The notes under the pieces are model-generated. The model did no database searches. It was not told the DNA's origin and saw nothing but the letters and a program-made list of their open reading frames with translations. DNA of 33,255 nt from a virus (taxonomy: Duplodnaviria > Heunggongvirae > Uroviricota > Caudoviricetes), in the IMG/VR virus record IMGVR_UViG_2737471834_000009; one strand, 5' to 3'. Made by a program: the position numbers and the translations under genes. Shown one piece after another: positions 1,307 through 17,595 of the stretch. How positions within the stretch are numbered: position 1 is the stretch's first letter; each line of letters opens with the position of its first letter.

Positions 1307-3748
1307 TTAAAAATCAACCGGATTCGGGATCAGTTTTTGCCAGATAGCTGAAACGTATTTTGCCTGGTAACGAGCGTCATCAAGTGCATTATGGCGCTCA
1401 CCTTCGAATGGAATAGCCGTTCTGGCATCGAAGTCTATGGCTTTCCCCAGCTCAACGATTGTGCGTACATCGCGATCGTTGTAGTAACGCCACGGGCAGG
1501 GGATCCCCTGCCGTTCGTATGAACGGCGCAAAATCGTGTTGTCGAAGTTGGCTCCATTTCCCCAGACCTGAACAAAAAATTCACCGGAGTTTTCGTCGAT
1601 AAATTCCCGCAATTGTAACAGTGCATCATCTAACGGGATTTCATCGGTCATAATGGCAGATTGCGCTTCGCGTGATTGCTTAAGCCACCATTTAATGGTG
1701 TCCCGATCAATGACTCCGCCAGCAGTTTCCAGATCGATAGTCTTACTAAATTCCGGTCCCATATCTCCGGTTTGCGGATCGAAAAATATTGCACCTATTG
1801 AGATGATCGGGGCATCAGGATTTTTTCCCATGGTTTCAAGGTCGATCATTAGATGGTCACACGTCCTGCTGGTGGATGTGATTTCGTGATGACCGTTCAC
1901 CTTAATTGAGTGATCTGCCGTCTCGCCAGTTTTATTATCGCTGGCGTGATGCTGATTGCCGCCAGGGTTCTCCTTGTGTGGATGTTCAGCGCCTTCCATT
2001 TCCTCCGGATCATTTTCCTGAACTTCAACCTGATTCTCTTCATCGAATGTTTCCTGGTATGTTGCGTCGCCCATCACCGCGCCACAATCAGGGCAGTTGC
2101 CGCCACCGCTCTGACCGCAGGCGGTGCAGACTTTTTCCGGTTCCTGTTGCGCTACTGGTTCGGATTGTTTCGTTTCTGGCTCGTTTTGTAACGCATTTGG
2201 GCTGTTTTGTTCCGCTTTTTGGTCGTTCCGTTCCGATTCATGCTGGTTCTGGTTCACAGAATCGCGAGTCTGGATCCCCTTGACCCATTTCGGATCATTA
2301 GGGTCGCTAATCCCCTCAACAAATTCACCACGCGATACAGCAAGTAACTTATCGGCGTCAGGCTGGCTGATATTGGCTGCCTGCATAATTTTGTTTACTT
2401 CGTCAGCGGTGACTTTTACTTGGTTAGCGGAACTCACCTGCGACTGAGCATCCAGCGACTGCGCGTTCTGGCCATGTTCAGTTGTATCCGGTTCCATTGT
2501 TTCAGTTGTTGCCTGTTCACCTGCCATTGCGTCAGATGGTTGTGGTTTTTCTTCTTCTGTTTCACGCTCAGTAACCACCTCGCGGTTAATTTCTTCCAGG
2601 ATATCTTTTTCCGGCGTATGCCGGGCAGCTGTGAGAGTTTCCTTGCTGGGGTTCTCGTGATCAGTTTCCGTCAAATAGGCGTTGATATACCCCTGAAGGC
2701 GTCCCGGGTAGTGATAAAATTCAGGGTGTGCGCTTCGGATAAGTGCAAAAATAGCGGCGCGGGAATAGTCCAGAATACCCGGGGTTGCACGAAGTGCTGC
2801 GGACCATTCTTTGAACGGACTTTCTTTGTTCAGGACTACTTCTTTTGCGCGACGATAAACGCTGCCCGGAATTTCATAAATATTAAAATCCATCGGAAGT
2901 GTGGCTGCTGCAATCTCCACATCCAGTGTGTCGAGGGTGTGTACTAAATTCGGATTGCGATCGGTTTTGTTCCCACCGCCAGCATTAGCACCGGAAGCCG
3001 TGCGGGTGATGCGTGAAACACGATTTCCTTTCATCCACTCTTTTGTCAGCAGGCCGCGATCGGTGTAGTCAGCGTCCAGGTATGCTTCGAAAAAAGCAGT
3101 CATTAATCCCAGACTGGAATTAACGGGATTAGGGAAAACTTTGTCAGTGTCGCGAACCAGTTTGTGGAGGTCGCGAAGTTCCAGTGGGTCGAGCAGGCTG
3201 GTTTTGTGCGAAATAGCCAGGGCAGTAACTGCCGGTAGCTCTTCAGCCCGAGCGATATGTAATGCCTGAAGTTCATCTCTTGAAACGTGTGTTACTGGTT
3301 TTTCGCTGCCGTGTTGAGCAAGCCAACGGATAGCCACCTCCTGACCGGAAACTGGCAGGAGCATGCTCTCCTCAATCTCCGTCATGTCTTCGCCGTTAAC
3401 ATTGGTATTTTCGGTGCTGGCTGGTTTGTTCTGCACAGAGGGAGATGGCGCGGTGAATACCATTGTGATGCCATCTTCACCGCCTTTTTCATAGCGGTTA
3501 CAGAATTCGGTATCAAACACGCCTTCTGGTGGAAGGTCATTCACAACAGGCAAATGGACGCGAACAGGTTTTTTAAAGTCCTCTTCGTCGTAACCAGCAT
3601 CATCCATTGCGACATTACCGCGGGAAACTGCAACAGATAATTTTTTTGCTGTAGTCCAGTAAAAACCGCCTTTAATACCGAGACGTTTTCTGACTTTGTC
3701 ATTTTTGGCTTCGTAATGGAGTGCAATGTCTTGTTTGTCAGTGCTCAT
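1307..3748 (-). CDS. large exonuclease-like protein with C-terminal DnaQ-like (DEDDh) 3'-5' exonuclease domain
   Basis: C-terminus has motifs DLETMG, WGNGANFD and HNALDDARY typical of DEDD exonucleases; central CxxC...CxxC (CTACGQSGGGNCPDCG); long acidic Q/E-rich linker; RBS GAGG before ATG at 3748. Confidence 0.7.
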   Translation of the reverse strand: MSTDKQDIALHYEAKNDKVRKRLGIKGGFYWTTAKKLSVAVSRGNVAMDDAGYDEEDFKKPVRVHLPVVNDLPPEGVFDTEFCNRYEKGGEDGITMVFTAPSPSVQNKPASTENTNVNGEDMTEIEESMLLPVSGQEVAIRWLAQHGSEKPVTHVSRDELQALHIARAEELPAVTALAISHKTSLLDPLELRDLHKLVRDTDKVFPNPVNSSLGLMTAFFEAYLDADYTDRGLLTKEWMKGNRVSRITRTASGANAGGGNKTDRNPNLVHTLDTLDVEIAAATLPMDFNIYEIPGSVYRRAKEVVLNKESPFKEWSAALRATPGILDYSRAAIFALIRSAHPEFYHYPGRLQGYINAYLTETDHENPSKETLTAARHTPEKDILEEINREVVTERETEEEKPQPSDAMAGEQATTETMEPDTTEHGQNAQSLDAQSQVSSANQVKVTADEVNKIMQAANISQPDADKLLAVSRGEFVEGISDPNDPKWVKGIQTRDSVNQNQHESERNDQKAEQNSPNALQNEPETKQSEPVAQQEPEKVCTACGQSGGGNCPDCGAVMGDATYQETFDEENQVEVQENDPEEMEGAEHPHKENPGGNQHHASDNKTGETADHSIKVNGHHEITSTSRTCDHLMIDLETMGKNPDAPIISIGAIFFDPQTGDMGPEFSKTIDLETAGGVIDRDTIKWWLKQSREAQSAIMTDEIPLDDALLQLREFIDENSGEFFVQVWGNGANFDNTILRRSYERQGIPCPWRYYNDRDVRTIVELGKAIDFDARTAIPFEGERHNALDDARYQAKYVSAIWQKLIPNPVDF

Positions 3749-4753: not shown

Positions 4754-4811
4754 AAAAAGGGCGGCAGAGCAGTCACGGAGTAAAACTGATACCGCCAAAC
4801 GTCACCAGAAA
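4754..4811 (-). ncRNA. dicF: DicF small RNA (ftsZ-targeting sRNA) with intrinsic terminator
   Basis: Minus-strand sequence TTTCTGGTGACGTTTGGCGGTATCAGTTTTACTCCGTGACTGCTCTGCCGCCC followed by a T-run; GGCGG...CCGCC terminator hairpin; located between ydfC and dicB as in the Qin prophage. Confidence 0.8.
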
Positions 4812-12429: not shown

Positions 12430-13242
12430 ATGACCACTATTACCAAAGAGCGACTGCAATGGCTGGCTAACATTTCTGGCCGTGATGACATTGACGATAT
12501 AGACGGCGGTGAGATTCGTGAACAGGCACGAATTGCTCTGGCAGCGCTGGAAGTCGAGCCGATAGGTTTCCGTTGCAGGCGCAATGATAACCTTGGTGAT
12601 TGGAGTTACGTATATCATCGAGAGCCAGATGATTTTGAGCGCAAACATTTAGTGATAGAGGGCATTTACGCCGCCCCTCCAGCGCCAGTAGTACCGGAAG
12701 AAAAACCAATGCCTAATCCTCTTAGCATGTACGCGGTTGATGCTGTTGCCGCTATTGCAGAGGTGAGAGGCTGGAACGCCTGCCGCGCCGCCATGCTTCA
12801 GTCCGGAAACTTTCGGGAAAACAAGAATTCGTCAACCAATAATTTTCGGGAAATCGCGGAAACGTCAACCAACTCTCCGGTAATTCCTGATGAGGTGTTG
12901 TCCGCAATCCGGGAGGTTGCCAGGATTCGCGCCGATTTCGATGATTTTGACGGTGACAGGCGAGGTATCGGTGATTGTCTGGATGAGGCCGAGCAAGAGC
13001 TTATCGTTACCATTAACAAATATGCCAGTCAGTTGGCAGTAGAGCCGGTAGTACCTGATGACGTTCTGGAACAGACAGTAGCGTCGCCCGCGCCAGGTAA
13101 CCAGGTTAGCGAATTAACAATGTGGGTTAAGCGTCTGGCTCACTCCTTAAAGTACGCCAATAGCTTAAGCAGCTTGCCTGATAAGGCGATGGAGTATCTG
13201 AATCAGAATGGGCTGATAAGTGTGGAGGATGTTTTACGATGA
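12430..13242 (+). CDS. hypothetical acidic protein (possibly Ea22-like; unassigned)
   Basis: 270-aa ORF, acidic with D/E-rich segments, RBS AAGGAG before the ATG. Confidence 0.6.
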   Translation: MTTITKERLQWLANISGRDDIDDIDGGEIREQARIALAALEVEPIGFRCRRNDNLGDWSYVYHREPDDFERKHLVIEGIYAAPPAPVVPEEKPMPNPLSMYAVDAVAAIAEVRGWNACRAAMLQSGNFRENKNSSTNNFREIAETSTNSPVIPDEVLSAIREVARIRADFDDFDGDRRGIGDCLDEAEQELIVTINKYASQLAVEPVVPDDVLEQTVASPAPGNQVSELTMWVKRLAHSLKYANSLSSLPDKAMEYLNQNGLISVEDVLR

Positions 13243-13322
13243 TCTGGCCTGAGGCATTCACAACGGCAGGAATCGCGATGGCGGTGGCGCTGGTGGTGTA
13301 TTCGATTTGCCGTTGGGGTTAA
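13239..13322 (+). CDS. possible 27-aa hydrophobic peptide, translationally coupled to the upstream gene
   Basis: ATGA overlap with the upstream stop; product MIWPEAFTTAGIAMAVALVVYSICRWG; strong terminator immediately downstream. Confidence 0.3.
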   Translation: MIWPEAFTTAGIAMAVALVVYSICRWG

Positions 13323-13330
13323 CAAACAAA

Positions 13331-13358
13331 AACCCCGGATTGATGGTCCGGGGTTTTT
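13331..13358 (+). terminator. intrinsic terminator (CCCCGGA-loop-TCCGGGG followed by T5)
   Basis: Perfect 7-bp stem with a T-run; A-run upstream, so it may act in both directions. Confidence 0.7.
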
Positions 13359-13639
13359 GAAGGAAACAAAACAGAAACAACAATTGCCGTTACCTGTTGT
13401 TACCATGGCAAGTAAACGTATCTCAGGCGAGCGCATTGCGCCGTTCTGACGCAGATAAATTAGCCTGGATAGAAGGTGCTGGCAATAAAAAATAGCGTTT
13501 TCTTATCGGTGTCGGTAAGATTGCTGCGGGTGCTTGAGGCTGTCTGCCTCAGGCATGCCACTGTAAGGCAGACAGAGAAAAGCCCCAGTTAACATTATGC
13601 GTCCGGCAAGACGCTTAACATTAATCTGAGGCTCAATCT

Positions 13640-13852
13640 ATGAACGGCAAATCTAGGTTAGCCTCTTACGCGCCGAAAGGCAAGGAGAAGCAGGCTATGA
13701 AGCAGCAAAAGGCGATGTTAGTCGCCCTGATCGTCATCTGTATTACCGTCATTGTGACGGCACTGGTAACGAGGAAAGACCTCTGCGAGGTACGAATCCG
13801 AACCGGCCAGACGGAGGTCACTGTCTTCACAGCTTACGAACCTGAGGAGTAA
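13640..13852 (+). CDS. Mok-like reading frame (in-frame N-terminal extension of Hok)
   Basis: 70-aa ORF containing the hok frame, as in chromosomal mok/hok loci. Confidence 0.55.
   Translation: MNGKSRLASYAPKGKEKQAMKQQKAMLVALIVICITVIVTALVTRKDLCEVRIRTGQTEVTVFTAYEPEE
13697..13852 (+). CDS. hok: Hok/Gef family type I toxin
   Basis: 51-aa product MKQQKAMLVALIVICITVIVTALVTRKDLCEVRIRTGQTEVTVFTAYEPEE is near-identical to remembered HokD/RelF; mRNA leader has the tac-like hairpin GCTTGAGGCTGTCTGCCTCAGG. Confidence 0.85.
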   Translation: MKQQKAMLVALIVICITVIVTALVTRKDLCEVRIRTGQTEVTVFTAYEPEE

Positions 13853-13995: not shown

Positions 13996-14388
13996 ATGAA
14001 GAAACTTGTTTTAGTCGCAGGTGTAATGATTGCAACAGTAATGTTGGGAGGGTGTGCAGCAAAGGTCGATCCAGCGTTGAAAGCAGAAGCAATGAAGCCA
14101 CTAACATGTAATGATGAAAAGCAATGTGACTTTTATTGGAAACGAGCGCAATTCTGGTTGGCTAATAATTCCTCATGGAAAATTCAAACGGCGACAGACA
14201 CGCTAATTTCCACTTATAATCCCTCTCCAAATAGTCCATTCCTCGCTTATCAAGTGAGTAAAATGCCAAATGAAGATGGATCCTCAAGAATTTTCATCAA
14301 GCCTTTTTGCGATAATATGTTTGGCTGTCAACCAAACCCCTATCAGGCAGTTGTTTCCTTTAAAAACTTCGTTAAAACAGGGCAGTAG
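13996..14388 (+). CDS. putative lipoprotein (moron)
   Basis: Signal peptide with lipobox MLGGC, four further cysteines; followed by an intrinsic terminator. Confidence 0.7.
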   Translation: MKKLVLVAGVMIATVMLGGCAAKVDPALKAEAMKPLTCNDEKQCDFYWKRAQFWLANNSSWKIQTATDTLISTYNPSPNSPFLAYQVSKMPNEDGSSRIFIKPFCDNMFGCQPNPYQAVVSFKNFVKTGQ

Positions 14389-17285: not shown

Positions 17286-17361
17286 GGCCCTTTAGCTCAG
17301 TGGTGAGAGCGAGCGACTCATAATCGCCAGGTCGCTGGTTCAAATCCAGCAAGGGCCACCA
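17286..17361 (+). tRNA. tRNA, anticodon CAU (ileX/ileZ-like tRNA-Ile2; tRNA-Met not excluded)
   Basis: Manual cloverleaf: acceptor GGCCCTT/AAGGGCC, anticodon loop CTCATAA, T-loop TTCAAAT, CCA encoded; close to remembered ileX. Confidence 0.8.
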
Positions 17362-17362
17362 A

Positions 17363-17439
17363 CCGCCACTAGCTCATCAGGAAAGAGCGTCAACCCTTTA
17401 AGTTGAGTGTGCGAGGTTCGAGTCCCCGGTGGCGGTCCA
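17363..17439 (+). tRNA. atypical tRNA, anticodon loop CCTTTAA (anticodon UUU, Lys-like, with C at position 33)
   Basis: Manual cloverleaf: acceptor CCGCCAC/GTGGCGG (C1-G72), D-loop with GG, T-loop TTCGAGT, CCA encoded; isotype uncertain. Confidence 0.55.
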
Positions 17440-17441
17440 GT

Positions 17442-17517
<76 letters not shown>

Positions 17518-17520
17518 TAT

Positions 17521-17595
<75 letters not shown>

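Follow-up and report, generated by a model that had tools for sequence, protein, structure and literature searches.

A short conserved reading frame that probably encodes a membrane micro-protein ahead of a terminator-like hairpin in an Escherichia coli phage

The mini-ORF and its immediate surroundings

The phage genome deposited in IMG/VR as IMGVR_UViG_2737471834_000009 (Caudoviricetes; 33,255 nucleotides (nt), a stretch that we call the window) carries at positions 13239-13322 a very short open reading frame (ORF), here termed the mini-ORF. It starts on the stop codon of a longer accessory gene and ends just ahead of a strong hairpin. A preliminary description, made from the letters of the window alone, had singled out this arrangement, which we followed up by comparing the locus with related phages, plasmids and bacterial genomes. 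The features concerned are as follows.

12430-13242, plus strand: accessory ORF of 270 amino acids (aa), whose stop codon TGA (13240-13242) overlaps the mini-ORF start
13224-13228, plus strand: Shine-Dalgarno-like GGAGG, 10 nt 5' of the mini-ORF ATG and inside the upstream gene
13239-13322, plus strand: mini-ORF, 27 codons plus TAA, 84 nt; product MIWPEAFTTAGIAMAVALVVYSICRWG, with a single transmembrane helix predicted at residues ~7-24
13327-13339 and 13347-13359, both strands: arms of an inverted repeat and probable intrinsic terminator, 13 base pairs (bp), 100% complementary, loop TTGATGG

The preliminary description held up well at this level. Its ATGA-overlapped 27-aa frame is the ORF at 13239-13322, whose ATG (13239-13241) shares bases with the TGA of the 270-aa ORF, and its view of the product as a hydrophobic peptide with one transmembrane segment agrees with prediction. 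The hydrophobic core comprises residues 7-23 (Kyte-Doolittle mean 1.96; grand average of hydropathy (GRAVY) 1.2), flanked by charges at E5 before it and R25 after it, and the best 17-residue hydropathy window scores 1.8-2.8 in all eight diverged variants of the peptide that we compared. Because E5 is the sole N-terminal charge and R25 the sole C-terminal one, the positive-inside rule points to an N-out/C-in topology, which would put the W-P-E/D-A N-terminus in the periplasm and C24-R25-W26-G27 at the cytoplasmic face. Residues G11, A13, A15 and A17 would line one side of the helix as a small-residue face suited to helix-helix packing, suggesting that the peptide binds another membrane protein or associates with itself.

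Three parts, each matching PHROG families of unassigned function, make up the 270-aa ORF upstream as a mosaic: phrog_5117/3323 at the N-terminus, phrog_14306 in the middle and phrog_660/924/8171 over the C-terminal ~50 aa. No Pfam match to the DUF551 domain was found in its product. The ORF is intact in the window; in the near-identical regions of strains QA-1986 and A19, the Prokaryotic Genome Annotation Pipeline (PGAP) gives only 'incomplete' pseudogene fragments labelled DUF551.

Considered within the window, the mini-ORF is not striking. The window contains 321 ORFs of 20-50 aa that start with ATG; 15 of these are hydrophobic, five overlap the stop codon of a long ORF, and the mini-ORF is the sole one with both properties. 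By a rough estimate, ~0.2 such ORFs are expected against the one seen, which does not exceed chance, and its significance therefore rests on comparative data.

The hairpin begins 4 nt after the TAA of the mini-ORF and reads CAAAAACCCCGGA, loop ttgatgg, TCCGGGGTTTTTG. The perfect 7-bp stem with an A-run and a T-run that had been described is present as the core of the 13-bp repeat (CCCCGGA/TCCGGGG, flanked by AAAAA and TTTTT). Its predicted fold has an energy of -24 kcal/mol (z = -4.8), which none of 200 shuffled sequences reached, and no other terminator-like site between 11000 and 16000 comes close to it in strength. The U-tract is TTTTTG on the plus strand and TTTTTGTTTGTT on the minus strand, the latter being the better one, and the hairpin is probably a bidirectional intrinsic terminator.

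Conservation, coding signature and distribution

We aligned the mini-ORF and its flanks across 108 distinct contexts, all retrieved by similarity to the ORF itself. Within the ORF the median pairwise identity was 94%, compared with 25-34% in flanking DNA. Conservation extends from the Shine-Dalgarno region to the stop codon; in complete E. coli genomes, many BLAST alignments run exactly from ATG to stop (query positions 18-101). In 208 copies we found 76 DNA alleles, every one of them 27 codons long. Stop codon identity varies (TAA, TGA or TAG) while stop position is fixed, and codon 2 is always ANN (encoding T, S, I or N), matching the demand of the overlapping TGA.

Variation within the block falls where it would in a coding sequence. 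The identical peptide MTWPEAFTTVGIAMAVALVVYSICRWG is encoded by 20 of 43 DNA alleles, and across these 43 the pairwise ratio of non-synonymous to synonymous polymorphism (pN/pS) is 0.23 in frame versus 1.58 and 1.55 in the other two sense frames. Counted as unique variants over all 76 alleles, 39 changes are synonymous and 52 non-synonymous, versus an expected synonymous share of 26% (p = 3e-4); this excess is absent from the other two sense frames. At the peptide level, M1, A6, R25 and W26 are invariant across the 208 copies, and W3, P4, E/D5, G11, A15, Y21, S22, I23, C24 and G27 are nearly so. The preliminary description had let its case depend on the frame being conserved in homologous regions, and conserved it is, with a synonymous excess and between unrelated flanks.

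To obtain a sample unbiased for 5' intactness, viral contigs were searched with the 3' end of the ORF only (n = 120). An intact 27-codon ORF with the ATGA overlap was present in 110 of these, while four had an in-frame deletion, one had a GTG start directly after a TAA and two had a moved stop codon. Three of the 120 were broken, two by 1-nt deletions and one by a nonsense change. The ATGA overlap was found in 99 of the 99 copies first examined and in all 110 intact anchored copies, and GGAGG or AGGAGG lies 7-11 nt 5' of the ATG in nearly all of the 99. The junction comes in two sequence types, with GGAGG 10 nt or AGGAGG 7 nt from the ATG. The ORFs upstream range from 46 to 308 aa and contribute at least five unrelated C-terminal regions; they include DUF551 proteins, Ea22-like and EaA proteins, a protein with a dATP/dGTP pyrophosphohydrolase domain and hypothetical proteins.

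Sequence downstream of the mini-ORF diverges immediately after the stop codon into more than 12 unrelated contexts. The modules found there include hok/sok directly, ParDE (a ParD/RelE pair), a HigBA-like pair, KilA-N and xis/int, among others. The hairpin of the window recurs 3' of the mini-ORF in 17 non-redundant contexts, and in other mosaics its place is taken by at least nine different G/C-rich hairpins, at distances of 5-31 nt from the stop. This variable distance rules out a mechanism that depends on fixed spacing between ribosome and hairpin. Since a terminator-like hairpin or an independent module follows in most contexts, the peptide gene is typically the last of its transcription unit. 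In two loci (L041 and L096), the DNA to the right of the hairpin is replaced by a convergent HigB/HigA-like pair ending ~20 nt away, and there the hairpin is, judging by this layout, a shared bidirectional terminator. The hairpin is itself polymorphic: one locus (L066) lacks it precisely, through a 37-nt indel between AAACAAAA repeats (equivalent to window 13323-13365), and in another (L020) the loop is inverted, CTATCAA versus TTGATGG, as if the palindrome had flipped.

Copies of the mini-ORF are abundant. It occurs in 1,727 of 5,426 complete E. coli genomes, at 3,304 places, with up to seven per genome and 164 on plasmids. By tblastn, 90 phage records contain the peptide with 54-100% identity, among them 933W, VT1-Sakai, VT2-Sakai, BP-4795, ArgO145 and a Punavirus. 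A further search found it in ~181 plasmid records from E. coli, Salmonella, Klebsiella and E. fergusonii, mostly of ~80-130 kb and 174 of them non-mobilizable; from size and mobility typing we take these to be P1-like phage-plasmids. In a collection of one genome per species it was confined to Escherichia and Shigella, besides two short contigs labelled as other genera. These contigs, of 1,780 and 431 bp (L013, labelled a Segatella copri metagenome-assembled genome, and L014, labelled Xanthomonas pisi), carry an E. coli-type mini-ORF and hok, and are most likely assembly contamination. In K-12, Qin has no copy and in CPS-53 the gene after yfdS is yfdT, which is unrelated, with Rac, DLP12 and e14 outside this check.

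Annotation has largely passed the gene by, as the preliminary description had supposed for small membrane peptides at operon ends. The mini-ORF is annotated in none of the 18 records that we inspected, neither in the 11 from RefSeq nor in the 7 from GenBank, and in all 18 annotation of the preceding gene stops at the ATGA junction or no more than a few bases from where the mini-ORF starts. Searching protein databases with a 40-aa in-frame extension as query returned 57 proteins containing the peptide, all of 25-57 aa, a few of them N-terminally extended (30-57 aa). None was a long in-frame fusion to DUF551, Ea22 or another domain. Their names are hypothetical protein, 'bacteriophage protein' or, wrongly, 'DUF551 domain-containing protein, partial'. 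This last label derives from the upstream gene that overlaps the mini-ORF: Pfam finds no DUF551 match in the peptide, and 121-aa DUF551 proteins share a 90% identity database cluster with the 27-aa peptide yet do not contain it.

A coding gene weighed against its alternatives

We consider it likely that the 84 nt are a true gene whose product is a micro-protein of 27 residues crossing the inner membrane once, and that this gene is carried as a portable cassette in front of a strong terminator. The cassette (Shine-Dalgarno sequence, ATG overlapping the preceding stop, 27 codons and stop) would travel among lambdoid and Shiga toxin (Stx) prophages and P1-like phage-plasmids. Ribosomes finishing an upstream accessory gene of the Ea22, EaA or DUF551 type at the UGA would re-initiate at the overlapping AUG, aided by GGAGG, such that synthesis of the peptide would be confined to periods when the phage expresses its early operon and would scale with that of the upstream partner. 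The product would then insert into the inner membrane with residues ~7-24 spanning it. The hairpin would end the accessory-gene unit and stop rightward transcription before the hok/sok locus downstream, insulating that module, and would stop leftward transcripts as well.

What the peptide does is a matter for speculation; most plausibly it would bind or perturb an inner-membrane protein of host or phage early in development. Because the cassette is near-identical between unrelated flanks, it could also serve as a homology patch for module exchange. A bolder reading, which we hold tentatively and think rather doubtful, joins the two: an undescribed, widespread peptide family that acts on a specific host inner-membrane target in early development, and a conserved hinge for swapping toxin-antitoxin and other cargo. 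Effects on the lysis-lysogeny decision, superinfection exclusion or membrane energetics can be imagined, speculatively, for such a target.

Several observations weigh against a coding gene with a membrane function. Retrieving loci by similarity to the ORF inflates the identity measured inside it. Constraint is moderate rather than extreme (the pN/pS of 0.23), and W3, P4 and F7 differ in a minority of copies. Antisense frame 1, which shares the wobble position, shows a synonymous excess like that of the coding frame (36 synonymous to 52 non-synonymous), and the strand can therefore not be assigned from the substitution test by itself. No significant match to a protein family, a structure or a defence system hints at a function for the peptide: searches of Pfam, NCBIfam, PHROGs and PADLOC with peptide variants gave sub-threshold noise only, the best sequence match in the PDB had E > 3, and Rfam had no match in the peptide region. 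The best NCBIfam match, to KdpF (TIGR02115), reached 14.9 bits against a cutoff of 26.85 and aligned 11 residues. Peptide strings were not found in the searchable literature, nor in the supplements of the Sakai ribosome profiling paper PMC5597208. Lastly, null alleles exist, showing that the mini-ORF is dispensable: a 1-nt deletion interrupts it in four loci (L003, L013, L154 and L173), and a TGG to TAG nonsense change at codon 3 (codons 2-3 being window 13242-13247) occurs in POCJ13, phiSTEC1589-Stx1c and L119.

The nonsense change at codon 3 is recurrent, being noted for loci L098, L101 and L119. In alleles reading ACC-TGG, codons 2-3 form the Dcm site CCTGG. Dcm sites are amber hotspots through deamination of 5-methylcytosine, which on the bottom strand turns TGG into TAG; Coulondre and Miller reportedly described such amber hotspots in lacI. 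The synonymous change ACC to ACT, the expected product of top-strand deamination, is also seen among the alleles. Mutation bias thus probably accounts for the recurrence without selection, at least in ACC-TGG alleles; codon 2 of the phiSTEC1589 allele is AGC, and its present sequence is not a Dcm site.

If the 84 nt were conserved as DNA or RNA, as a linker for module exchange or as structure at an mRNA 3' end, the open frame would be incidental. Identity does fall sharply to non-homologous flanks on both sides, as at a recombination junction, and the region is predicted to fold, with a CAACGGCA/TGCCGTTG stem at 13261-13315. We nevertheless find this improbable, because changes cluster at synonymous sites in just one of the sense frames, four of the five indel types preserve the frame, being multiples of three, and the conserved block runs from Shine-Dalgarno sequence and ATG to a stop codon that changes identity and not position. 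The predicted internal stem is not kept by compensatory change in the common allele, and a linker role is in any case compatible with coding. A promoter for hok was also considered as the cause of conservation and rejected: the promoter-like site of loci in which hok follows directly lies 3' of the stop, and the ORF is equally conserved where no hok follows. That the real gene lies on the minus strand scarcely merits belief. In its favour are two minus-strand ORFs in the window, one of 77 aa (13203-13436) and one of 41 aa (13258-13383), the fact that 39 of 43 alleles keep antisense frame 0 open, and the substitution pattern noted above for antisense frame 1. The 77-aa ORF is in antisense frame 0, though, where 18 synonymous and 73 non-synonymous changes indicate no constraint, and the 41-aa ORF is in antisense frame 2, which contains stops in 35 of 43 alleles. 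The sole listed ORF in antisense frame 1 (13127-13261) overlaps the mini-ORF over its first 23 nt only, and an antisense gene would have to start in the non-homologous downstream flank and cross the hairpin.

The mini-ORF might instead be a decayed remnant, once the C-terminal membrane anchor of the upstream protein and since frameshifted off it or joined to it by programmed -1 frameshifting. Its frame stays open for 13-18 codons 5' of the ATG, which would suit such an origin, as would the few N-terminally extended database entries. With all 57 peptide-containing proteins no longer than 57 aa, the same ATGA junction behind at least five unrelated C-terminal regions and purifying selection ongoing, we give this very little credence. 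The programmed frameshift version is ruled out, there being no slippery heptamer common to the two junction types and no long fusions in the databases. Being small, hydrophobic and a single helix, the peptide could also be a toxin in the style of the type I toxins Hok, Ibs, Ldr and TisB that damages the host membrane. Toxin-antitoxin modules (hok/sok, ParDE, HigBA-like) lie directly downstream in most contexts, and recurrent null alleles could mean counter-selection. We think this unlikely. The mini-ORF is coupled to the gene before it in a long operon, and neither a promoter of its own nor an antisense RNA over the ORF was found; no toxin family, Hok/Gef included, showed similarity in the Pfam, NCBIfam, PADLOC and PHROG searches; and the recurrent nonsense change is explained by the Dcm-site bias in ACC-TGG alleles. 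A translated membrane micro-protein accounts best for the frame, its junction and its pattern of variation.

Neighbouring modules and known systems

Downstream of the hairpin lies a toxin-antitoxin module with the following features.

13360-13527, strand not assigned: spacer between hairpin and hok/sok, with a conserved block (13409-13452) and a minus-strand promoter-like site; not part of the peptide gene
13528-13852, plus strand: hok/sok/mok type I toxin-antitoxin locus, an independent neighbouring module
13640-13852, plus strand: mok ORF
13697-13852, plus strand: hok, annotated hokD in near-identical genomes

The Rfam sok match (RF01794; 13528-13702, 111.7 bits) belongs to the hok locus. 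In 933W-type phages (L002 and L006), hok/sok starts directly after the mini-ORF stop without a hairpin, whereas the arrangement in the window interposes the hairpin and a ~170-nt spacer. Loci with hok directly behind have a promoter-like TTGCGG-N16-TAGAAT, read by eye, just 3' of the mini-ORF stop. Immediately after hok in the window, a 130-aa ORF (13996-14388, plus strand) begins MKKLVLVAGVMIATVMLGGC; it matches phrog_16082 and, by our own reading, has a lipoprotein-type signal with an LGGC lipobox.

A candidate minus-strand small RNA of ~130 nt starts in the spacer and would run from about 13451 to 13318 (region 13318-13485). Its promoter-like site consists of a -35 element TTGCCA (13485-13480), a 17-nt spacer and a -10 element TAATTT (13462-13457), with T-rich sequence upstream. 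The conserved block GCGTCAGAACGGCGCAATGCGCTCGCCTGAGATACGTT follows (about 13452-13415), then a variable segment, then the hairpin with its minus-strand U-tract. Three diverged versions of the region retain the -35, the spacing and a TAnnnT -10, and the predicted fold has an energy of -44.6 kcal/mol (z = -3.0). The hairpin may be the terminator of such an unrecognised small RNA. No Rfam family matched the spacer or the candidate, apart from sub-threshold matches driven by the terminator, and the DNA strings of spacer and hairpin had no match in a literature search.

We placed the locus on the phage map using a 96.5%-identical prophage next to yccA in E. coli QA-1986. There, int, exonuclease, dicB, ydfC/B/A and the repressor gene lie on one strand. 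A cro-like gene follows, then YdaT, replication genes (DnaT-like and P), DUF1627, DUF977, several accessory genes and the mini-ORF locus; after it come hokD, a further ORF, DUF968, RusA, Q, tRNAs, lysis genes and terminase. By gene order, the mini-ORF locus occupies a position equivalent to the lambda nin region. DUF968, rusA and Q follow on the same strand, which makes the hairpin a terminator within the early-right block and not its end. The preliminary description was thus right to place a terminator between mini-ORF and hok and went too far in having it close that block, as the operon continues to Q. No N-like antiterminator is annotated in the near-identical prophage. Elsewhere in the window, the DicF small RNA (Rfam, 76.7 bits) lies at 4759-4810 on the minus strand, in the same left arm as dicB, and four tRNA genes, annotated Ile, Lys, Thr and Gly in the near-identical prophage, lie downstream of Q at 17286-17592 on the plus strand.

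Set beside known systems, the hairpin is like lambda nin terminators of the tR2/tR3 type in being G/C-rich with a U-run and in its location on the rightward early transcript, after the replication genes and before Q. It also resembles bidirectional terminators between convergent genes, being symmetric, with an A-run and a T-run, and common to convergent units in other genomes. Unlike the lambda terminators, to which it has no sequence relation, it is itself an indel and can be flipped. The peptide shares with type I toxins (Hok/Gef, Ibs, Ldr, TisB and DinQ) short length, hydrophobicity, a single helix and carriage on mobile elements, and a hok locus lies 200-300 nt away; it differs from them in lacking the mRNA fold-back elements, promoter, antisense RNA and homology of that group and in belonging to an operon in which co-translation is inferred.

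Small E. coli membrane proteins bind larger membrane partners through helix-packing motifs, which the G11/A13/A15/A17 face resembles. KdpF (29 aa), AcrZ, MgtS, PmrR and CydX are of the same size class and likewise form a single hydrophobic helix, and such genes often go unannotated. The peptide has no significant similarity to them and is encoded by phages and plasmids, not in a host operon with its partner. It looks like a new, widespread and otherwise ordinary member of the small-membrane-protein class, outside any described family by sequence. Such proteins are systematically missed by annotation, and phage-encoded ones are almost unstudied; this gene is very common, occurs in clinically important Stx phages and lies in the poorly understood Ea22/DUF551 accessory region, which affects lysogeny. 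Were a host target to prove true, it would represent a new phage-host interface; even without one, the peptide is worth adding to annotation pipelines.

Termination-reinitiation coupling makes expression of a downstream gene depend on translation of the gene before it. The junction is like those of ATGA-coupled phage early gene pairs, including many lambda nin-region genes, in its 4-nt stop/start overlap and in the Shine-Dalgarno sequence inside the upstream gene. Unlike fixed pairs of this kind, the partner here is just 27 codons long and the same junction recurs behind at least five unrelated genes, as expected of a portable cassette. As a short block of high identity between unrelated modules, with toxin-antitoxin and KilA-N cassettes inserted right behind it, the mini-ORF recalls phage moron boundaries and the linker sequences of lambdoid phages, and it would explain a recurrent mosaic breakpoint behind which toxin-antitoxin cargo is inserted. 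It departs from linkers in that the conserved block itself appears to be a selected coding gene and not non-coding DNA.

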